Of a stretch of DNA of 30,433 nucleotides, positions 50-30,433 are shown piece after piece. The translations under genes and the position numbers were made by a program. Origin of the DNA: Chiloscyllium plagiosum (Eukaryota); NCBI RefSeq assembly GCF_004010195.1, contig NC_057718.1, forward strand, positions 50,501,380 through 50,531,812. The letters run 5' to 3'. Positions within the stretch are counted from its first letter, which is position 1. The number at the start of each line of letters is the position of its first letter. Under the pieces are notes generated by a model. The model saw only the letters and a list, made by a program, of their open reading frames with translations. It did not search any database and was not told the DNA's origin.

Positions 50-1552
50 AAACAAGATATATCAGTACTTAGGAGCAAATGGACTGATTAGGAATAAACA
101 GCATGGCTATGTGCGTGAGAGGTCATGCCTCACTAACATAATTGAGTTTTTTGAGGAAGTAACAAAGTTGATTGATGAGGATAAAGTGGTTGAGGTTGTC
201 TATGTCGATTTCAGTAAAGCCTTTGTCAAGGTCCCTCATGACAGACTGGTACAAAAGGTAAAGTGCTGAAAATGTGTTGCTGGAAAAGTGCAGCAGGTCA
301 GGCAGCATCCAAGGAGCAGGAGAATCGACGTTTTGGGCATGAGCCCTTCTTCAGGAATTCCTGAAGAAGGGCTCATGCCCGATACATCGATTCTCTTGCT
401 CCTTGGATGCTGCCTGACCTGCTGCGCTTTTCCAGCAACACATTTTCAGCTCTGATCTCCAGCATCTGCAGTCCTCACTTTCTCCACAAAAGGTAAAGTC
501 ACATGGTATCAGAAGTGTGCTCACAAGATGGTTACAGACTGGCTTAGTAATAGGAGACAGAGGGTAGTGGTGGAAGGATGTTTTTCGGAATGAAGGGTTA
601 CGACTAGTGATGTTCCATGGGGATCAGTGCTGGGGCTGCTTTTCGTGATCCACATAAATGATTTGGAGGAAAATATATCTCATCTAATTAGTAAGTCTGT
701 GGATGATACAAAGATTGGTGAAGTTGCGGATAGTGAGGAGGATTGTCAGGGGATACAGCAGAATATAGATCAGTCAGACGCAGAAAAATGGTAGAATGAA
801 ATTAATCTGGACAAATGTGAGGTGATGCATTTTGAAATTATAGAGTGAATGGCAGAACCCTTAGGAGTGATGATATGCAGAGGGATCTGAGTGTGCAGGT
901 CCACAGATCACTAAAGGAGGCAGCGCAGGTAGATAAGATAGTAAGAAAGGCCAATTGCATGCTTGCCTTCATTGGAAGGGACGGTGAGTATAAGGATAGA
1001 CAAGTTATGCTGCAGCTTTATAGAACTTTAGTTAGGCTAACTTGGAATATTACGTACAGTTCTGGTCACCACACTACCAGAAGGATGTGGATGCTTTGGG
1101 GAGAGTACAAAAAAAGCTTTACCAGTTATGGGGGATTTTAGCTTTGAAGAAAAGTTGGATAGACTGGTTCTATTTTCACTGGATTGCAGAAGGTCGAGGG
1201 GCGACCTGTTAGAAGTTTATAAGATTGTGAATGGCCTGGATAGAGTGGAAAAAACGAGGCTTTTTCTCAGGGTGGCAGGGTCAATTACAAGGGGACACAG
1301 TTTCAAGCTGCGAGGGGGTAAGTTTAAAAGAGATGTGCAAGGCACAAAGGGTGGTGATGCCTTTAACGCATTGCCAGAGGAGGTGGTGGAAGCAGACATA
1401 ATTGCAGCATTCAAGAAGCAACTGGATGAATGCACAAATAGGAAGGGAATAGAGAGATATGGATCCTGTAAGTGAAAACAGTTTTAATATGGAAGGGCAA
1501 AGTGTGTCGGCGAAGGGCCTGTTCTTGTGCTGTTTTGTTCTTTGTTCCTTGT
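50..1552 (+). mobile_element. CR1-clade LINE, 5'-truncated, decayed ORF2 (RT to 3' UTR), interrupted by a PLE palindrome at 265-485
   Basis: Translates to QHGY..RSCLTNIIEFFEEVTK, VYVDFSKAFVKVPHDRL and SKSVDDTKIG. ORFs 845/1128 give QRDLSVQVHRSLK, MLQLYRTLVR, RGDLLEVYKI and TRGHSFKL. Ends in a TTGTTC-like tail. Many stops and frameshifts. Confidence 0.92.
265..485. mobile_element. Penelope-like element terminal repeat (pLTR) inserted as an inverted pair plus a 35-nt tail
   Basis: 265-357 is the reverse complement of 358-450 (5 mismatches in 93). The sequence matches the 3' end of the GIY-YIG element at 22470-22595. Flanked by the exact direct repeat ACAAAAGGTAAAGT (251-264, 486-499). Confidence 0.9.
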
Positions 1553-2546
1553 CAGTAGGGAGTAGAATAGGAGCCTGTCCTGCATCTATGGCTAGTGGAT
1601 GATCAAACAGTAGAGGGAGAACCTCAAGCAGACTGAGCAAGGGCAGGTCCCATTTTAGACTAGTGATAAGCAGGTAGAGAATTTGTTCCATGGGAAGAGA
1701 CAACCTAATGTTTCAAATTGTCCATTACGGCAACTGATCAAGATCTGGTTTAATGAGGTTTGGAAGAAGTCCTCAAAAAAAACCATGGGTCCTGATCATA
1801 ATGCCAAAGCATAATGGATTGTAACTCTTTGACATGGAAAATGTCAGCATTATTCAAGAAGGAGTATGGTTAGATTATGATGGCATCCTTTCCTATGCTG
1901 GTGAGAAAGAATCACTCTGGATAAACGTCAGCACACAAAAAAAGTGAGCCGCCACCCTGTGTATTCAAATTAACATGGCTTGTTTGGTTTTTGGACAAAT
2001 GCCATCCTAAATTGCACTGTAGATATTCGGAGCCTGAACATAGATATCACCAGGAAAGGAAGAATACTACACCAAAAGTTCCCTAAAACACTGCCAGTAT
2101 GGAACCTTCTCATGTAACATCCATAACACTACCTTCTGTATTAGGACACAATATCAGGCAGGGCAAGTTTAACCAAGATCACAGACATCCACAGGAGGAG
2201 TGAGATCTTTGTTAATGTCAGTCACTAGCTCAAAGAAACTTTCGGAGATTGTTATGAGATGTCCGATACTGCCATTAAACTCCTATCTGAAAACTTAGAG
2301 TAGGTCCGCACACAATGGCACATAAAGGTTTTGCTACTGTTATTCAGCAGGCAGATCCAATTCAAATGGGTATCAGGGAAATCAAAGTGACTGTTTGCTG
2401 CAATGACTTCTGAAAATGGAGCTCCAACCTGCAGTGGGTATGTCTCCTATCACACCTGACTGTGGGGTTCCTTCTGTTTATCTTGGTCTATCTCACCATC
2501 CTTATGTGATAGCAACATCTGAACAGGTTGATTAGGAAAGTAAATT

Positions 2547-2637
2547 CCTGAAGAAGGGCTTATGCCCGAAACGTCGATTCTCCTGTTCCTTGGATGCTGC
2601 CTGACCTGCTGCGCTTTTCCAGCAACACATTTTCAGC
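2547..2637 (+). mobile_element. Solo ~91-nt Penelope-like pLTR unit
   Basis: Near-identical to 360-450 and to the terminal unit starting at 22472. Flanked by TAGGAAA(G/A)TAAATT at 2533-2546 and 2638-2651 (14-bp TSD, 1 mismatch). Confidence 0.9.
2548..2575 (+). ncRNA. Minimal hammerhead-ribozyme-like motif in a PLE terminal repeat
   Basis: CTGAAGA (CUGANGA box), an extra A, stem-loop GGGC-TTAT-GCCC, then GAAA-CG-TC (palindromic ACGT stem III, GUC site). Stem I pairing is weak. Confidence 0.65.
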
Positions 2638-4113
2638 TAGGAAAATAAATTGTCACCCACAGTGAACCTTGGTATACAGCAGTATTGTTCCTACCTCAGA
2701 GCCAAGAATTGACTTCAGGTCCCATCAGCTCCATAGGTGCATCTTAACATGTTTGAACAAGTTGATTAAAATAACAACAGATGATTGGGAGTCTTGTGAT
2801 TACATGGTTAGACTCTATTTTGGAGCCAGATGGTCTGGGTTATAAAGATGTAGACACCCATGGCAGCCAAAAACAAAACAAAACCAGCACTCAGGCTAAT
2901 GGTTATCTACAGGGATAATTTGCTAAATCTTCCATAGGACAGGAGAGAATCAAATTGTCATAGGAGAGCTAGAGGCTCCTCACCTCGTTGATGTTGATCT
3001 GGTTTTAATGCTGGAGACTCTAAGGGGAATCCACTTTTAGACTACTGTTGTATAAGGTAATGGTTCTGAAGGGGTTAATATCCATGTTCCATTGACTTCA
3101 CCCATTCTACTAATGTTACACAGTGTGTGAGTGGAGAGAAGGAATTTGATTCCAGTTTTTGGGGTGGGGGTACGGGGTTACAGAGGTGTATGTACTGTAC
3201 CATCTTCCTAAGCTGCTAGTAATTACACCTGACTAAATGCAGTCATAGTTATTACCACATTACAATAAACATTTTTGTTATCTGAGAACAATGCTGCTTT
3301 TGTCGACACTTAATGATGGTGTATCCTCTCCCATTAATCACTAAATAGGCCAAAGATGAAGGGGTATTGGTGACAGAGAGCTACATCAAACTGCACTTAT
3401 CCTTTACCACAAATTAGTAGAGACTGCAAATACAACAAGATGCCATCAATCGGCATCTGGGAAAATGCCACAGCCACCCCCTACTGTGCAACAGGCACTC
3501 AGCTTTGTTTGCAGTCCTCTTCCACCACCTCCAATCCATCCTTTGTTCCTCCCACTTTATTCTTCACCAATGAGCTGTTGCCTTCCAGGGACTCAGTGCT
3601 CTCCATGTTTACAGGCCTTGTAACTTAGAACGCAGCAGCCAGGACCCCTGCAGGAGGGTATTTGAGGGCACCACCTCTGTATTTGCAGAGGCCTGATGGA
3701 CCACTCAATGGTTGTCCTCCTCAGTAAGTGACATTGATTAAATCAGTTCTGTGTTTCTATCTGGGGCTCCCTTAAGAGGGTGTGCAGCCATGTCTTCAAA
3801 CAAATGAAAACTGAAAGAAAAACCGAAACCACATAATGTGATGACATGGGGTAAACCTCCTGGAAAAATAGCTGGTTCAGCAAGAGTCAAACATTTGAGT
3901 CCTATGATTTCTCTTTGTGCTTTCGAAGAGAGCTCTTTGCACTTCTGATGTCCTCATTGAGGCAGGATAATCACCACTAATCATCTCATCACTATCTTCA
4001 TCAAAGCTCTAAAAGAAAATTTACCATTTATATTACTCTTTAAACATTCCATCTTTCAACTTTGACAAGCTTTTATTTGATCTCATTTAGGAGTGGGTTT
4101 CTATAGATATGTT

Positions 4114-4195
4114 CCTAATCAAATAGTTCAGATGTTGTTACATACCTCTAGCATAGATGGGACCCAGGCCTCCTAGCTCAGAGGTAGCAACATTA
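4114..4195 (-). repeat. Fragment of the same SINE-like unit as 2425-2845
   Basis: Reverse complement reads CTACCTCTGAGCTAGGAGGCCTGGGTCCCATC...AACATCTGAACTATTTGATTAGG, similar to 2690-2770 and 2514-2536. Confidence 0.5.
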
Positions 4196-12564: not shown

Positions 12565-15082
12565 ACTAACCCTTAGTACAAGGAGAAGAAACCTAGAAGA
12601 CCTTCAAGAACAGAAAAAAAGTCAAGCACACGAGCTTCCAATTTTAAATGCATAACTACATTAAGAGGGCAGTCAGTCAACAGTTAAAATGGGATTACCA
12701 ACAAAAGAGACTTCAGCAGCCAAGGAAGCACTAAAAAGTCAAACCTAGCACTCCAAGGCTCATTCAGAAACTGGTGAGAGGCATTGTGAAAGTGTAGGCT
12801 ATCAAAAGAGAGAAAAAAGCCTGACACTCTGAAAATCTTATGGAGATTTTAGCAAAGAGGGGCCATTAAGGGGCAACTGAAAGTTCCAGGAAGTGAAGTT
12901 GGAGATTTCTAAGGGAAAAGACAATAACCTTATGAAAAATGAAGCAAAGACCAAAGGGAAGGCAAGGAAGTGTAAAAGAGAGTTCTTGTCTCTCACAATG
13001 AGCATTGTTCCATCAACATTGAGTTCCATGAGACACAGCTGCAAGGAACAGTGAAAGAACCAGAAAAAAAAAAATTAGATTGGAGCTACCGAATGGGATA
13101 GGCCTCAGAATTTACTTAAGCTGCAAAGTAACCAATTTTCAAAAATGGTCATGACTGGCCCAGTGAAGTTGATTTCAGACGATTATGGATTCAATGCTGC
13201 TGCTATTAACTGCTTCCAGGTGCCGATGTTACAGCTGAAAGGAACAAAAGTCAGAAAGCATGCTAAGAAAATTCAGTGATTAGATTGTGCAACGTTCCAG
13301 CTAGTTGGACAATCGGAATACAGATGTAATGTACATAATCTATGGAAACAGTAAACAAGGACATGGTTAAGACAGTGGGAGCAAGCAGAGTATTTGGGAG
13401 GGAAGGGGTGACTAGGAGGGAGGAAGCAACTACCTAACTTAATAGCCAAATAGATTTTAGTCCAAGAAACAAAGATGAATGAATTGACAAAGTCTGAGAA
13501 GATTGCTTATATTTACTTTTCTAAGCTCTCTTTGTGGTGATGTCAGCCAAGAAATGAGCCATCACCAAAACTGCAGCAGATCAGATGTTTATATGGCAGA
13601 GCTATGACCCTGTAAATCATGATGCCTGTTCCATTCAGGTATCATTCCATAAATAGATTCCTGTTTAATTTCCTGACTTCATCATTCTACTACACTAATT
13701 TCTACCATCAAATTAGGCTGTGAATTCCTCTTTTTCTTTCTTATCCAGACATCATCTCCTTACAACAGCTATAAGTAATGAAATAGTACATCTAAATGCA
13801 ATTAAAATGAAAAGAAAATCATGAATTGATTACTCATTTCTGCTGTATTTTGCTTCCAGCAAGTTATCTACGATGGTGAAAATCAGTCCACTGACCATTT
13901 TCTTACAGGCTTAGTCATTACAATCTAATTTTAAAAAATGAAAACTCCATGTGAGGATCATCCCTAGAGTCTCATTCCTTTAGAATTGGAGATTTGGGGA
14001 TATAATTCCCATATTTTAGTACATCGGCTAATATGTTTTCATTAAATTTCTGTTTACTCAATTTTAACACAGCAGTTAGTCTTTTATTTATTTTCTAACT
14101 GGCTATTGCTGTGTTAACACAGTGCAGGCAGAAATTTAGCACAAGTACGTTAACCACTGTTCTAAAAATAGAATAAATTAAATCATCAGACTCACAGTGG
14201 CTGCAACCTTCAGTCGAGGAAGAAAATAATGGGGATGCACCCTGACTGCTTCAGTATCAGCCTGCAACAATGGCTTTATATTTTGATGGATGACAGCACG
14301 GATTTCCTGTGCTTGTAGGTATGTAAGTGTGGAGAGTGGTCAAATGGTGGTGTTATTCAGCATTTAATGCCAATTTGATGTTCAACCTGCAATTTGGACT
14401 TTGCAGCTCCTGTTAATGACCTCTCTTAAACATGCACAGGGTATGCACTAAGCTGCATGAGCAATTATTCCACCCCATCCTCCATCAGTGCTTTTTGAAA
14501 GGTAGTATTATCCAGTTTGCAAATTGGATGCTTTTAACTATCTCTTTGCTTTCACAAAATTAGTGGAAATACTATGTTGCTGGAGTTAGTGACAGACCTT
14601 AGTTAAGCCAAAAGAGTGTCGTGGTGAACATTTAGAATAATTTGTGTGATTTTGAAAATCCTCTGAATACATCACTTTCCCCAGACATAGGGGTTATAGA
14701 TGCCGTTTGCCTTCGGTTGCATTATCAGTGCAAGGTCATATAGCAGCAACAGAGATGACAAGTTGCTAATAAGTGGAGGAGATGGGCTCTCATCAAGACA
14801 CACTTCTTCCATCTGAACCACTTCCAGAGGCTGTATGTCATCAAGGAGATGACAATATAAAGCCACCTTGTCAACCTGAAGCTGCAGCCACAGACCAGGT
14901 TTAGGAGTATCTCCCAATGGCCAAGCGGTCACCCGTTTATGACAAAGATGTGAAGGAATTTTTTCACTTAGAGGGTAGTCAATCCTTACCATGTTTAATG
15001 AACTGTCAAGGCTTGGATGTTAACTATATTCAAAGCTGAATTAGATTTTAATCAGGAAGAGAATCAAGAATCAAGAATCAAG

Positions 15083-16330
15083 AGGCCTGATGGCATTTAT
15101 CCTAGGATTCTCTGGGAAGCAAGGGAGGAGATTGCAGAGCCATTGGCCTTGATTTTTATGTCCTCTTTGTCTACAGGAGTAGTGCCAGAAGACTGGAGGA
15201 TAGCAAATGTGGTTCCCTTGTTCAAAAAGGGAAGTAGGGATAACCCTAGTAACTATAGGCTGGTGAGTCTCACTTCTGTTGTGGGCAAAGTCCTAGAGAG
15301 AATTGTAAGGGATAGGATTTATGCACATCTGGATAGGAATAATGTGATCAAGGATAGTCAGCATGGTTTTGTGAAGGGCAGGTCGTGCCTCACAAACCTT
15401 ATTGAATTCTTTGAAAAGGTGACGAAGGAGGTTGATGAGGGGAAAGCGGTAGATGTGCTATATATGGATTTTAGTAAGGCGTTTGATAAGGTTCCCCATG
15501 GTAGGCTACTGCAGAAAATACGGAGATATGGCATTGAGGGTGAGTTGGAGGTTTGGATTAGGAATTGGCTGGATGGAAGAAGACAGAAGGTAGTAGTTGA
15601 TGGCAAAGTTTCTTCATGGAGTGCCGTCACGAGNNNNNNNNNNNNNNNNNNNNNNNNNNNNNNNNNNNNNNNNNNNNNNNNNNNNNNNNNNNNNNNNNNN
15701 NNNNNNNNNNNNNNNNNNNNNNNNNNNNNNNNNNNNNNNNNNNNNNNNNNNNNNNNNNNNNNNNNNNNNNNNNNNNNNNNNNNNNNNNNNNNNNNNNNNN
15801 NNNNNNNNNNNNNNNNNNNNNNNNNNNNNNNNNNNNCTTTAGGAAGGATGTGGAGGCACTGGAACGGGTGCAGAGGAGGTTTACCAGGATGTTGCCTGGT
15901 ATGGAAGGAAGATCGTATGCGGAAAGACTGAGACACTTGGGGCTGTTTTCATTAGAGAAAAGACGGTTTAGGGGTGACTTGATTGAGGTGTACAAGATGA
16001 TTAGGGGGTTAGATAGGGTTGACAGTGTGACCCTTTTCCCGCGTATGGAGTCGGGTATTACAAGGGGGCATAGCTTTAAATTAAGTGGGGGGTAGATATA
16101 GGACTGAAGTTAGGGGTAGGTTCTTCACTCAGCGAGTCGTAAGTTCATGGAATGCCCTGCCAGTAGCAGTGGTGGACTCTCCCTCTTTATGGGCATTTAA
16201 GCGGGCATTGGATAGGTATATGGAGGATAGTGGGTTAGTATAGGTTAGGTGGGCTTGGATCAGCGCAACATCGAGGGCCAAAGGGCCTGTACTGCGCTGT
16301 ATTCTTCTATGTTCTATGTTCTATGTTCTA
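15083..16330 (+). mobile_element. Young 5'-truncated CR1 LINE (RT and 3' UTR) containing an assembly gap
   Basis: Open frame PDGIYPRIL..VPEDWRIANVVPLFKKG..NYRLVSLTSVVGK..QHGFVKGRSCLTNL..YMDFSKAFDKVPH. After the gap: RKDVEALERVQRRFTRM..RGDLIEVYK..TRGH. (TTCTATG)n tail at ~16305-16330. Confidence 0.96.
15634..15836. other. Assembly gap (203 N)
   Basis: Run of N. Confidence 1.
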
Positions 16331-19839: not shown

Positions 19840-20814
19840 GTAGGTTTGCCACTAATTCTGATTCAATTACCTTGTATAATGTAACACTATACCTTGTGGG
19901 CTAACCGTATAGATTAAAGAAAGATCTTTACTTTTAACCACTTTCAGAAGGCTAATTACACAATAGCTTCAGGCTGTTCCATGAATGGTAGGTTTAAAGA
20001 TTGTGATATTAGGATTCTATTGATGCACATTAGAATCTTCAAATGAAAATAACGAGGTCAAGGTTAATAATAATTTTGGTCAAGATATTAATATATTTCA
20101 GATTCACCAGTTGCTGCTGTATGTTATCTTCCACTTTCTGGTGGAGTTGGTTTTAACAAGCATTTTTCTGTGTTTTCCTTTACTTGCCTTGCCTTCAAGC
20201 TGACGGGGAATATATAGAGGTGACAACTCAGATATGCAAAGTCTAGTGGGCCTCTATGCTCTATGTGCAGGAAGATTTCCATCTTTCAAGGCTAATTTGT
20301 TTGATGCATTTTTAGGTCTTGCAAATCAATGCTTTTAGTAGTGGTAGTGTTACTACATTAAGGATTTACAAAAAGGAGTGAGTTTGAGTTCCATGATAAT
20401 GTCCCACATCTGATTCACAGCAGGATTTGCCTCCTCGTCAAAACAAGTGGGAACAAAGGTTGCAGATTTCCCAGCTCTGCTGATGTTGGTGCTGGGAGCC
20501 TGGAGACCAAGAAACATGTAATCCTCCCCAGCTCTATCATGGCCAGTTTAGGAAATGTATCTGAGAGGCGTGTCACATGTGCTCTGGAGGCATACAAAAT
20601 GCAGATGGCAACATGGCAACATCTGAAGCTGAATTGTCTAAGCCCTTCTTCAGGTTCTGTTAAGTGCCCTTCCTGAAGAAGGGCTTATGCCCAAAACGTC
20701 GATTCTCCTGTTCCTTTGAAAAGTAAAGATCTTTCTTTAATCTATACGGTTAGCCCACAAGGTATAGTGTTACATTATACAAGGTAATTGAATCAGAATT
20801 AGTGGCAAACCTAC
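19840..20814. repeat. Perfect 96-bp inverted repeat (19840-19935 and 20719-20814) with a 783-bp spacer
   Basis: Base-by-base reverse-complement identity. ORFs 19698+ and 20750- both end RFATNSDSITLYNVTLYLVG. Confidence 0.97.
20639..20718. mobile_element. Short rearranged Penelope-like pLTR pieces
   Basis: TAAGCCCTTCTTCAGG (20639-20654, antisense), 15 nt of filler, then TTCCTGAAGAAGGGCTTATGCCCAAAACGTCGATTCTCCTGTTCCTTTGA (20670-20719, sense). Confidence 0.85.
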
Positions 20815-21693: not shown

Positions 21694-22595
21694 CTTGCGG
21701 TTGCAGGGGAATGTGCTGGGAGTGGAGGTTGGGTTGGTGGGTGGGTGTGGACCTGATGAGGGCGTCACGGAGGGAGTGGTCTTTCCAGAATGCTGATAGG
21801 GGAGGGAAGGGAAATATATCCTTGGTGGTGGGGTCTGTTTGGATATATTTCTCTCCCCTCCCCTATCAGCGCAAGAAATGCAAAACTTGCACCCACACCT
21901 CCCCCCTCACTTCCCTCCAAGACCCCAAGGGATCCTTCCATATACATCACAAATTCACCTGCACCTCCACATACATCATTTGCTGCATCCGATGTGGCCT
22001 CCTATACATTGGGGAGACAGGCCTCCTACTTGTGGAACGTTTCAGAGAACACCTCTGGGACACCCGCACCAACCAACCCAACCACCCCGTGGCTGAACAC
22101 TTTAACTCCCCCTCCCACTCCACCAAGGACATGCAGTTCCTTGGCATCCTCCATCGCCAGACCATGGCAACATGACGCCTGGAGGAAGATCGCCTCATCT
22201 TCCGCCTAGGAACCCTCCAACCACAAGAGATGAATGCAGATTTCTCCAGCTTCCTCATTCCCCCTCCCCCCACCTTATCTCAGTCCCAACCCTTGGACTC
22301 AGCACCACCTTCTTGACCTGCAATCTTCTTCCCGACCTCTCCGCCCTCACCCCCTCTCCGGCCTATCCCCCTCACCTTAACCTCCTTCTACCCATTGCAT
22401 TCCCAACGCCCCACCCCCAAGTCCCTCCTCCCTACCTTTTACCTTAGCCTGCTTGGCACACCCTCCTCATTCCTGAAGACGGGCTTATGCCCGAAACGTC
22501 GATTCTCTTGCTCCTTTGATGCTGCCTGACCTGCTGCGCTTCTCCAGCAACACACTTTTCAGCTCTGATCTCCAGCATCTGCAGTCCTCACTTTC
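21694..22595 (+). mobile_element. Penelope-like retroelement, 5'-truncated with an inverted 5' segment; GIY-YIG endonuclease, C-rich 3' UTR and pLTR with tail
   Basis: ORF 21681: RKKCKTC..FTCTSTYIICCIRCGLLYIGETG..ERFREHL..PVAEHFNSPSH, continuing *RLEEDRLIFRLGTLQP. Terminal unit at 22470-22595. 21694-21842 is upstream ORF sequence on the minus strand. Confidence 0.93.
22473..22500 (+). ncRNA. Minimal hammerhead-ribozyme-like motif
   Basis: CTGAAGA-C-GGGC TTAT GCCC-GAAA-CG-TC. Confidence 0.62.
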
Positions 22596-22888
22596 ACCCA
22601 CTCTCTGAAATGGCCTAGCAAATCATTCAGTTGTATCAATCCATCGTGAATAATAAAAAAAAATCAAAGAAACAGGATGGATCACCTAACATCATACAAA
22701 GAACTGGAAATTGCAACAGCAATTGTAGCCCTGTTGTTCCTGCAAACTCCGCCTTACTAACATTTGGAATCATGTGCCAAAATGTGGAGAAAGGTCCTAC
22801 AGACTAGTCAGGTAACGGCCTGACATTTATCAGACTTTTAGAATCTACCTTTCAGCAATGTTCTGGACACTATCATTGCCGTCCAGCC

Positions 22889-24561: not shown

Positions 24562-27500
24562 ATGGTGGTAAATAAAAAGGAAAGCAGCAATTTATCATGT
24601 GTGCAGAAGGGTTTAAGTACAAGGCAGACTGTGAAAGAAGTAAAAAGGAAGGATAACTCAGGAGATATTATTATTGGAGATGTTGGAATTCATAAAGAAG
24701 ATTCTAAAACTAGCATAAGGGCACTTTACCTGAATGCTTGTAGCATTCATAACAAGGTTGATGAGTTAACAGTGCAAATCATTGCAAATGAATATGATTT
24801 AGTAGCCATTGCGGAGACATGGTTACAGGATGGTCACAACTGGGAGTTAAATATCCAGGAGTATCAGACTATTTGGAAGGACAGATAAGGAGTTAAGAGA
24901 GGTGGTGTAGCTCTGGTATTTAAGGACAACATCAGGATGGTGGTGAAAGATGATATAAGTTCGAGGGAGTATAATGTTGAATCCATCTGGGTGGAAATTA
25001 GAAATTCTAAAAAGAAAAAGTCTGTAATATGTGTAGCCCATAGAGCACCAAATAATAATATCACATTGGGGCAGACAATAAACAAAGGAATAACTAATGC
25101 CTGTAAAAATGGTATGGCAATTATCATGGGGGAATTTTAATCTACATGTCGACTGGTCGCACCAGATCGATCAGGGGAGCCTTGAGGAGGGGTTCATTGA
25201 ATGCATCCGCTTTAGTTTTCTTGGACAGTTTGTAATGGAACCGATGAGGGAGCAAGCTATCCTCAATCTGTTACTGTGTAATGAGACAGGAATAATTAAT
25301 AATGTCATAGTTAGGGATCATCTTGGAAGGAGTGATCACTGTATGGTTGAATTCAGAATACAGATGGAAATTGCAAAGGTAAAATCCAATACCAGGGCCC
25401 TGTGCTGAAACAAGGGAGACAAAAATAGGATGAGGGAGGAAATGGCTAAAGTAGATTGGAAGCGAAGACTTTTTGGTGGGACAGTTAACGAACAGTGGAG
25501 AACTTTCAAAGCAATTTTTCAAAGTGCTGTGAAGTAGTGTGTACCAGTGAAAAGGAAGGACTGTAGGAAAAGAGGTTATCTGTCACGTGTGTCTGAGGAA
25601 AAAAGGGAAGCTATCAAACTGAAAGAGAAGGCATACAAAGTTGCCAAGATCAGCAGGAAACTAGAAGATTAGGAAAGCTTTAAAGGTCAACAGAAATCCA
25701 CAAAAAGAACTATAATGAAAAGTAAGAGAGTATTAGACAATACTAGCTCAGAATATAAAGACAGATAACAAAAGTTTCTATAAATATATAAAACAAAACA
25801 GAGTGGCTAAAGTAAACGTTGGTCCTTTAGAGGATGAGAAGGGAGACTTCATAATGGGATATGAGAAAATGGCTGAGGCATTGAATATGTATTTTGTGTT
25901 GGTCTTCACAATGGAGGACATGAATAACATGCCAGTAATTGACAAAGACACATAACCAGGTCAGGACCTGGAATCAATCAGTTATCATGAAAGAGGTAGT
26001 GTTGGGCAAACTAATGGAACTAAGGATAGACAAGTCTCCTGGCCCTGATAGAATGCATCCGGGGGTCATAAAAGAGATGGTGGGAGAAATAACAAATGCA
26101 CTTGTGATAGTTTTCCAAAATTCACTGCACTCTGGGGTTTTTCCAACATATTGAAAAACAGAAAATGTGACACCACCATTTAAAAGGGAGGTAGAGAAAA
26201 TATGGGGAATTATAGACCAGTTAGCTTAACTTCTATAGTGGGAATAATGCTTGAATCTATTATCAAGGAAGAAATAGCAAGACATCTCGATGGAAATTGT
26301 TCCATTGGGCAGACACAGGATGGGTTCATGGAGGGCAGATCATACTTAATTAATCTTTTGGAATTCTATGAAGACATAATGAACACAGTGGACAACAGGG
26401 ACTCAGTAGATGTGGTGTATCTGGATTTCCAAAAGGCATTTGACAAGGTGCCAAACAAAAGGCTGCTGCTTATGATAAAGATGCAAGGCATTATGGGTAA
26501 TGTATTAGCATGGATAGAGGAATTGTTAACCAGCAAGAAGCAAGGAGTGGAGATAAATGAGTGCTCTTCTGGCAAGAAGGCATGTAAGTGGAGCTGTGTC
26601 CATGAAAAGAGCAGCCATGACCTTATTGAATGACGGAGCAGACTTGAAGGACCAGATGTCTACTCCTGCTCCTAGTAATCAGTGACTAGTCGTGTGCCTC
26701 AGGGATCAGTGTAGTGACTGCAATTATTCACAATTTACATAGATGATTTGGACTACGTGTAGTGTGTCAAAGTTTGCAAATGACACTAAGATGAGTGGTA
26801 GAGCAAAGTGTGCAGAGAACTGTGAAACCTTGCAAAGGGACATAGATAGTTTAAGTGAGTGGGCAAAGGTCTGGCAGATGGAGTGCAATGTTAATAACTG
26901 TGAAGTCATCCAGTTTAGTAGGATTAACAGTAAAAACAACTATTACTTGAATGGTAAGAAATTGCAGCATGCTGCTATGCAGAGGGACCTGGGTGTACTT
27001 GTGCAAGAATTACAGAAGGTTGGTCTGCAGGTACACAAGTAATTAGGAAAGCAAATGGAATTTTGTCCATCATTGCTGAAGGGATTGAGTTTAAATGCAG
27101 AGAGCTTATGTTGCAGCTGTACAGGGTGCTGGTGAGGGCATACCTAGAGTACCGCATGCAGTTTTGGTCTCCTTACTTGAGAAAGGATATAGTGGCATTG
27201 GATGGGGTGCAGAGGAGGTTCGCTAGGTTGATTCCAGTGTTGAGGGGGTTGGCTTATGAGTAGACTGAGATTATATTCATTGGAATTTAGAAAGATGAGG
27301 GGGGATCTTATAGAAGCATATAAAATTATGAAGGGAATAGATAAGATAAAAGTAGAGAGGATGTTTCCACTGGCAAATCAATCTAGAACAAGAGGGCATC
27401 GCGTTAAAATTAGGGGAAGCAGATTTAGGATTGAAATGAGAAGGAAATTCTTCACCCAGAAGGTTGTAAATCTATGGAATTTCCTGCCCAGTGAAGTAGT

Positions 27501-27690
27501 TGAGTCTTCCAAATTAAACGTTTTTAAAGCTAAGATAGATAACCTTTTGAATAGTAAAGGAATTAAGGGTTATGGTGAGAGGGTGTGTAAATGGAGCTGA
27601 GTCCGCAAAAAGATCAGCCATGACCTTATTGAATGGTGGAGCAAGCTCGAAGGGCCAGATGGTCTACTCCTGCTCCTAGTTCTTGTGTTT
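24562..27690 (+). mobile_element. CR1 LINE with nearly complete but disrupted ORF2 (APE and RT) and 3' UTR
   Basis: ALYLNACSIHNKVDEL, IAETWL, GGVAL, ESIWVEI, LGRSDH (APE); KSPGPD, NYRPVSLTS, YLDFQKAFDKVP, VPQGS, SKFANDTK, RGDLIEAYKI, TRGH (RT and C-terminus). Multiple stops and frameshifts. Confidence 0.96.
26575..26676 (+). mobile_element. ~100-bp CR1 3'-end copy inside the RT of a closely related element
   Basis: TGTAAGTGGAGCTG.GTCC..AAAAGA.CAGCCATGACCTTATTGAATG...TCTACTCCTGCTCCTAGT matches 27586-27680. Confidence 0.88.
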
Positions 27691-29858: not shown

Positions 29859-30101
29859 TGGTCAAGCAACCACAGGCCCAAAATTTGACATTCTGTATAG
29901 AATCACAGCCGGAGAAATTGGGCTGAACAGAAAATTGACCAAACTAAATGAAACAGCAGCCAGCAGCTACTGAGAACAGTGGAGACTAAGATCAAAGAGG
30001 TTACAAAAGGTGGGGGGATCCAGACACTCTGGCATTTTAACCACCTGAGTAGGTGCACTTTACACTTCCTGGCATGACAACAATGAAGGGTGTTGGCAAG
30101 A

Positions 30102-30433
30102 GGAAAAAGTGAGGTCTGCAGATGCTGGAGATCAGAGCTGAAAATGTGTTGCTGGAAAAGCGCAGCAGGTCAGGCAGCATCCAGGGAACAGGAGAATCGA
30201 CGTTTCGGGCATAAGCCCTTCTTCAGGAATGAGGAAAGTTTGTCCAGCACGCTAAGATAAAAGGTAGGGAGGAGGGACGTGGGGGAGGGGCGTCGGAAAT
30301 GTGATAGGTAGAAAGAGGTCAAGGTGAGGGTGATAGGCGAGACTGGGGTGCGGGGGGAGAGGTGGGGAAGAAGATTGCAGGTTAGGAAGGCGGTGCTGAA
30401 TTCGATGGATTTGACTGAGACAAGGTAGGGGGA
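30102..30433 (-). mobile_element. Penelope-like element 3' end (tail, pLTR, UTR), running off the window
   Basis: Reverse complement aligns with ~22270-22595. Confidence 0.92.
30199..30226 (-). ncRNA. Minimal hammerhead-ribozyme-like motif
   Basis: Reverse complement reads CTGAAGA-A-GGGC TTAT GCCC-GAAA-CG-TC. Confidence 0.65.

Follow-up and report, generated by a model that had tools for sequence, protein, structure and literature searches.

Truncated, inverted and solo pseudo-LTRs (pLTRs) with tails have already been described for PLEs in the available text of earlier work (PMC3846280; PMC8557442; PMC6155905). The origin of these pseudo-LTRs, of inverted ends and of tandems is an acknowledged open question (Frangieh 2024, PMC11167929; Schostak 2008, in its available part). 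According to the accessible portion of Arkhipova 2013 (PMC3846280), a Cys-rich linker between the RT and the endonuclease is the mark of the Neptune clade. An extra base after A9 and a palindromic stem III remnant are listed traits of PLE minimal hammerheads in the accessible portion of Cervera and de la Pena 2014 (PMC4209133). The PLE protein of PAc starts reverse transcription at two neighbouring internal positions, which delimit the tail. It extends both strands of the nicked target and requires sequence downstream of the RT start for binding. Cutting the PAc template from the 5′ side gives a shorter product, mutation of the hammerhead leaves the product unchanged, the endonuclease prefers ATT, and the hammerhead is protein-assisted (Frangieh 2024, PMC11167929). 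PAc is a Poseidon-clade element, and its properties are carried over to the Neptune-like family described below by analogy between clades.

Six copies of a repeat unit, A to F, were located in the window, the whole 30,433-nucleotide stretch of Chiloscyllium plagiosum DNA analysed here (NC_057718.1, positions 50,501,380 to 50,531,812). All lie where the preliminary description had placed them, with corrected ends, which corresponds to about one copy per 5 kb. Copy A (265-358, minus strand) is an inverted arm with the short 3′ end, and copy B (357-485, plus strand) is a direct arm with a tail and a mutated core that overlaps copy A by 2 bases. Copy C (2544-2637, plus strand) is a solo unit that extends from an initiator-like A to the short 3′ end and shares 99% identity with copy F over 95 nt. 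Copy D (20639-20719, plus strand) is composed of a 16-nt inverted arm (20639-20654), a 15-nt filler and the first 50 nt of the unit (20670-20719); the 3′ part of the unit is missing. Copy E (22469-22598, plus strand) contains the unit and the tail, and copy F (30101-30230, minus strand), the reference for read placement, consists of the unit (30137-30230) and the tail (30101-30136). The latter two had been taken for free units, and both turned out to be the 3′ ends of longer PLE copies. Copies A, B and C start with ATTCCTG and copy D one base later. The 3′ end lies at TTTTCAGC in A and C, and B, E and F carry a tail of about 35 nt, in agreement with the two kinds of end noted earlier; the unit is 94-130 bases long, without or with the tail. 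A perfect 96-nt inverted duplicate of nearby DNA (19840-19935 / 20719-20814) abuts the broken 3′ end of copy D and may represent local template capture during insertion.

Copy C is flanked by target-site duplications (TSDs) at 2533-2546 and 2638-2651 (plus strand). The 14-bp duplication attributed to the solo copy is present at that length, although with one mismatch; its 13/14 identity was reached by 4 of 20000 random placements. The last three bases of the left TSD are also the first of the unit, so that the start of copy C can lie anywhere in 2544-2547. Short related repeats, one of them inverted, surround this insertion site (2510-2538, 2754-2768 and 4112-4140) and may mark where another small element ends. 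The A and B pair has an exact 14-bp TSD (251-264 and 486-499, plus strand), the left copy of which lies inside a CR1-type LINE RT fragment. Because the two copies share this TSD, they represent one event, a single head-to-head insertion (265-485), and the LINE frame is open across the empty site. Thus, A+B, C and D are three independent insertions with a common start, as had been claimed. For copies D and E, the search for TSDs gave nothing convincing. Decayed CR1-type LINE fragments are found at 1-1475, 15002-16095 and 26184-27600, with an assembly gap at 15.6-15.8 kb inside one of them. These repeats, 94-130 bases long, are genuine insertions whose ends are fixed.

Copy E is located downstream of the decayed end of a PLE ORF (21876-22172, plus strand), which encodes a Cys-containing linker and a GIY-YIG endonuclease (Pfam GIY-YIG, E 1.3e-4). 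This fragment shares 69% identity with the protein P0002, and its best matches, with 80% and 70% identity, are Chiloscyllium proteins, consistent with the shark host. As expected of a pLTR, the unit adjoins the 3′ end of an RT/GIY-YIG element, and its proposed PLE origin is supported. Two further pLTR features are an optional one-sided tail of 30-40 nt, present in B, E and F and absent from A and C, and an adjacent inverted copy with a TSD, seen in A+B and paralleled by opposite-strand joints at 30229-30232 among the joints listed from the public runs described below. P0002 contains the Cys-rich region between RT and endonuclease that distinguishes Neptune, and part of this region is found in the window fragment. 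Judged by sequence, the parent element would be a Neptune-like PLE, with no RT domain of the element in the window. Copies E and F share 87% identity over 331 nt and 83-87% in the upstream sequence. At the 5′ end of the long copy E lies an imperfect 79-nt palindrome (21792-21870) with several chance Rfam miRNA matches, which is likely an inversion junction.

Four public runs were placed on copy F and 200 nt of upstream PLE sequence. Two consist of DNA contigs, from organism A (X1, 78447 placed) and the related organism B (X9, 73882 placed), and two are poly(A) single-cell RNA runs, of which X21 gave 3334 reads and X22 gave 0 and is hence uninformative. Across 30224-30237 the depth falls 10.5-fold in X1, 9.5-fold in X9 and 5.9-fold in X21 (raw RNA reads), the last being the largest of the 18 two-bin ratios of that run; contig depth is noisy, and X9 also shows a 13-fold drop farther upstream. 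About 85% of the depth stops at the boundary and 14-17% continues upstream. Among the best 18 of 859 rows, loose ends at 30230 occur in X1, X9 and X21 with an agreement of 0.31-0.40, which means unrelated flanks, and the further best-supported 5′ loose ends are at 30231, 30234 and 30221. The 3′ loose ends in the same rows pile up at 30101-30102, the tail end, and at 30141-30146. At 30141-30146 the loose sequences have some ten letters in common that belong to a variant subfamily, so that the true ends would lie near 30135, the TTTTCAGC site. The tail/core depth ratio is 0.45-0.76. Copies E and F differ at seven of the first 32 upstream bases, and five of the seven differences appear among the variants of placed reads (30236-30250), which shows that the depth step is not mainly due to clipping. 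Endpoints are therefore clustered rather than uniform, and the depth step, the loose ends at 30230 and the TSD-flanked solo insertion support the earlier suggestion of fixed endpoints and a defined intermediate instead of random truncation. Head-to-tail joints were found in at least 12 of the 78447 X1 contigs (4, 2 and 6 in the three joint rows listed). In a few contigs, among the rows listed, joints link 30229-30232 with 30189-30198, where the hammerhead cut site lies or has just been passed; these could arise by fold-back on stem I or from cleaved templates. The 3334 X21 reads carry unit sequence with a 1.6-fold sense bias, and 93% of them run into unrelated flanks. In this poly(A) library, which would miss circular RNA, there is no position where many RNA molecules begin and no pile-up of ends at the boundary or the cut site. 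Depth is no measure of copy number; the density in the window, about one copy in 5 kb, and the summed depth both suggest that there are probably several hundred thousand copies.

The intact core reported for the solo copy was confirmed. Copy C contains a minimal type I hammerhead core (2548-2575, plus strand) with CUGAAGA, an extra A, a 4-bp stem II (2556-2567), GAAA and a palindromic stem III remnant. C17 is position 2575, and the predicted cut after C2575 lies 32 nt inside the 5′ end of the unit. The features of PLE minimal hammerheads, namely CUGANGA, the extra base, G10.1-C11.1, GAAA, the palindromic 15.2-16.2 and UH, are present in C, E and F. The extra base after A9, previously given as a reason to doubt catalysis, is a described trait of this group and not a defect. 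Stem I was correctly called weak: in folding of the monomer, the pair probability is 0.98-1.0 for stem II and 0.001 for the 2-bp stem I. The CUGA box (2548-2554) is predicted to pair with the short 3′ end (2630-2636; p 0.96-0.99), a pairing that, if formed as modelled, would block the ribozyme. The first stem I pair is kept as U-A, C-G or G-C in 21 of 22 motifs, a set for which the core and part of stem II were already in the search pattern. The core is intact in three of the six window copies (C, E and F) and broken in the other three, twice at the catalytic G12 (A and D). Among the six copies, 3 of 14 core positions vary compared with 9 of 80 elsewhere; the core is no better kept than the rest of the unit, as expected for decay after insertion. 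In the Rfam search, which had been recommended with hammerhead models, no hammerhead was among the 15 matches at E up to 5, and no match reached the gathering score. The MFE z-scores of five unit sequences (-0.76 to +0.52) indicate no unusual stability, and a search of viral contigs gave 0 matches. Self-cleavage was considered as the source of the 5′ end and rejected: with the cut site 32 nt inside the unit, hammerhead cleavage does not make this end.

TATA and initiator elements are consensus promoter motifs, the former lying about 30 nt upstream of the start. The PLE sequence upstream of the copy F boundary (30231-30433, minus strand) contains a TATA-like box at 30252-30259 (6/8, shuffle p 0.03) and an initiator-like TCATTCC around 30230. 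In copy E, a weak TATA-like box (22440-22447, plus strand) is located 29 nt upstream of the A at the boundary; it agrees with 5/8 of the consensus and is the single best match within 100 nt (shuffle p 0.13). Seven long copies were tested, E, F and five metagenome copies related to one another. In an offset window chosen after inspecting the data, -33 to -37 from C3, the TATA-like match is best or tied-best in 100 nt in all seven and unique best in four, with shuffle p values of 0.001, 0.014, 0.03, 0.10, 0.13, 0.13 and 0.16. An initiator-like motif is present at the boundary in six to seven of the seven, with A or its equivalent at -3/-4. Two cDNAs that end at the boundary A with a 2-base overlap, one tailed and one not, account exactly for the junction between A and B. 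We infer from these features that the boundary is the transcription start of the PLE RNA; the missing pile-up of RNA ends in X21, and the unrelated flanks of 93% of its reads, speak against this. RT can copy the cap and thereby add a C to the cDNA. Next to 30230, both DNA loose-end consensuses have a C on the cDNA strand, as do four of the five joint rows listed; in X21 the consensus at this position begins instead with A, and none of the three insertion events in the window has an extra G at the boundary. The C next to 30230 might, at a weak level of confidence, be a copied cap. A splice acceptor was rejected as the boundary, as this point lacks an AG and the loose ends have no sequence in common.

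A pattern scan of metagenomes yielded 20 loci from distant PLE families, in which the boundary reads ATGT or AGT and not ATT. In one family of eight copies, two begin at -3/-5, two contigs break at -4 and four continue upstream. An inverted arm abuts the motif in 5 of the 20 loci, two of the five being identical. The TSD search in these loci gave one plausible case, L008, which starts at -52 and not at the boundary, and repeats in L001 and L017/L020. In the distant family, the tail of L003, L005 and L018 appears to be about 60 nt long versus the usual 30-40 nt, and E-box, CRE and CCAAT-like words occur upstream of the TATA-like box in L001, L009 and L012. In L014 (17-736), the contig begins with a hammerhead, behind which an open frame of 240 codons extends past the end of the locus. 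This frame may encode a PLE N-terminus; a protein atlas search with it gave no usable match. The geometry is not universal, since the D. virilis Penelope starts away from its hammerhead: in the available text of Schostak 2008, an intron ends next to the hammerhead, and transcription begins 46 nt upstream of that intron from an internal, TATA-less promoter.

Retroviral minus-strand strong-stop DNA is a cDNA of fixed length that extends from an internal primer site to the 5′ end of the RNA. We propose, with somewhat better than even confidence, that the unit is likewise run-off cDNA: synthesis on a Neptune-like PLE RNA would begin at an internal RT start and proceed to the 5′ end of that RNA, and the product would be inserted alone or head-to-head. 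The first transcribed base of the PLE RNA would be the A that immediately precedes stem I of the hammerhead. The PLE protein would nick AT-rich DNA with a stagger of about 14 bases, and the RT would prime at one of two sites, 94 or about 130 nt into the RNA, and run off its 5′ end, as in strong-stop DNA. By analogy with PAc, the two 3′ ends are the known signature of two internal PLE RT starts. The short cDNA could then be joined to the target via a few shared bases, as in copy C, or two cDNAs primed from the two nicks could meet head to head, as in A+B. Longer copies would require read-through, a tandem or circular template, or a jump. The inserted stubs would be dead ends, and the hammerhead a passenger in this step. 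The scheme builds on the fixed ends, the TSDs, the PLE origin and the internal cut site observed here and on the boundary as the presumed transcription start; from the literature come the two internal starts, the priming on both strands and the product length set by the template 5′ end. Of the "small RNA or cDNA intermediate" suggested in the preliminary description, the defined intermediate is retained, and a small RNA is less likely than a short cDNA on the parent RNA.

The copies might also derive from the 3′ end of a long PLE RNA, with the cDNA stopped at the front edge of the hammerhead by a protein-bound or dimeric roadblock, or cut there by the endonuclease at ATT. The boundary is the first base of stem I here and in distant families, in E and F the unit terminates a long copy on its 3′ side, and the ATT preference of the PAc endonuclease and the protein-assisted PAc hammerhead (Frangieh 2024, PMC11167929) fit such a stop. 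However, an RT moving 3′ to 5′ would be expected to open stem I from its 3′ strand before the boundary, stem I is barely formed in the monomer, distant families do not have ATT at this point, and the promoter-like spacing is left unexplained. We consider this route unlikely. Rather less likely is a non-autonomous, SINE-like lineage, in which short masters, or deleted PLEs that kept the promoter and the binding region, are spread in trans by the PLE protein. Short copies outnumber long ones by about 6-10 to 1, solo copies have TSDs, head-to-tail joints occur (at least 12 contigs, in rows of 4, 2 and 6), the 3334 RNA reads with unit sequence show the sense bias, and pLTRs can mobilise DNA in trans according to the available text of Arkhipova 2013 (PMC3846280). 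Against such a lineage, none of 12 substitution columns splits the four short from the two long copies (n=6), columns 43, 46 and 52 group short with long copies, solo copy C is 99% identical to the long copy F, the upstream TATA-like box lies outside the unit, and 93% of the X21 reads are embedded in other transcripts. With six copies compared, an independent lineage may still exist, and the unit might contain an internal promoter like that of D. virilis; no discrete transcript was seen in X21.

That hammerhead self-cleavage and circularisation define the unit, as in a retrozyme, is very improbable. The type I hammerhead with its covarying stem I base, the few tandem joints and the derivation of retrozymes from pLTRs proposed in the available part of Li et al. 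(bioRxiv 10.64898/2026.07.22.740005) would agree with it, but the cut site after 2575 lies 32 nt inside the 5′ end, none of the six window copies is in a tandem array, all being solo or head-to-head, and the hammerhead is minimal and not a canonical type I motif with loop 1-loop 2 contacts. X21, a poly(A) library from which circles would be lost, shows no concentration of RNA ends at the cut site, and 94 nt is below the 150-450 nt range in the accessible text of PMC7229834, shorter families being given in that of Li et al. (bioRxiv 10.64898/2026.07.22.740005). We give just as little credence to random 5′ truncation with a step created by alignment across diverged upstream sequence. The upstream sequence is indeed more diverged (E versus F 83-87%), an 85% cut-off can clip reads, and the loose ends at 30231 and 30234 look partly G-rich like other subfamilies among the rows listed. 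However, the reads that carry the E-type variants at 30236-30250 do extend across the boundary, TSD or inversion junctions place the end of three window events at this point, and the flanks of the 30230 loose ends are unrelated. The separate retrozyme-like non-autonomous element of the preliminary description was not upheld, given the internal cut site, the missing arrays, the minimal hammerhead and the variants shared between short and long copies. The unit lacks the upstream promoter-like box and, by analogy with PAc, the downstream protein-binding region. Most likely, the repeats are short dead-end DNA copies of the front end of the parent PLE RNA, the part that bears the ribozyme, and not a separate self-spreading element.

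The run-off reading links internal priming in vitro to a genomic signature, the shared 5′ end of most copies, and junction bases and CAGE can test it. It also carries a warning that huge hammerhead counts in such genomes may represent mostly dead stubs and not retrozymes. A broader form, to which we assign a little less than even probability, is that strong-stop-like cDNA off a capped, hammerhead-first RNA is the default product of PLE transposition, with the same layout in distant families and some stubs maybe re-expressed. Most genomic copies would then be a direct footprint of the transcription start, full copies would need a template jump or circular or tandem RNA, and a general rule for the origin of pseudo-LTRs and inverted ends would follow. 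Stubs re-expressed from an internal promoter might form a minimal hammerhead-headed SINE class.

Among known systems, retroviral strong-stop DNA differs in that the product here would be target-primed, without a tRNA primer, and integrated as such, and the parent is not an LTR element. Non-LTR retrozymes, in the available text (PMC7229834; bioRxiv 10.64898/2026.07.22.740005), are likewise non-coding and pLTR-related, with a type I hammerhead, long TSDs and monomers, whereas the window copies show neither tandem arrays nor the canonical motif of retrozymes, and circular cut-to-cut RNA was not seen in the poly(A) reads; the accessible part of Li et al. (bioRxiv 10.64898/2026.07.22.740005) admits minimal hammerheads among retrozymes too. 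The metazoan PLE minimal hammerheads in the available portion of PMC4209133 have the same type I core, extra base after A9, G10.1-C11.1, palindromic 15.2-16.2 and weak stem I. They are mostly single motifs ascribed to truncated PLEs, as here. That portion contains no boundary analysis and names no cartilaginous fish, and the activity of the window motif is a prediction. PAc, the Anolis Poseidon element (PMC11167929), shares the two adjacent RT starts bounding the tail, the extension of both strands, the AT-rich targets and the dispensable hammerhead. It belongs to another clade, and the accessible text treats 3′ ends only and describes no dominant short genomic run-off product. In the literature searched, with most subscription journals outside the search, no dominant fixed 5′ end or start-site explanation was found for such PLE repeats. 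The closest counterparts are the pLTR insertions of endonuclease-positive PLEs (Arkhipova 2013, PMC3846280; Craig 2021, PMC8557442), which, in the text available, are alike in 5′-truncation, adjacent inverted copy, one-sided 30-40-nt tail, TSD and solo pLTRs, and in one of which TATA and Inr-like motifs are noted, as here. Their truncation is described there as variable, whereas in the present family a single point marks the end of about 85% of the depth, and a product no longer than 94-130 nt occurs at very high copy number. The repeats are thus real and abundant, a variant of the known pLTR insertions that offers a testable mechanistic lead.
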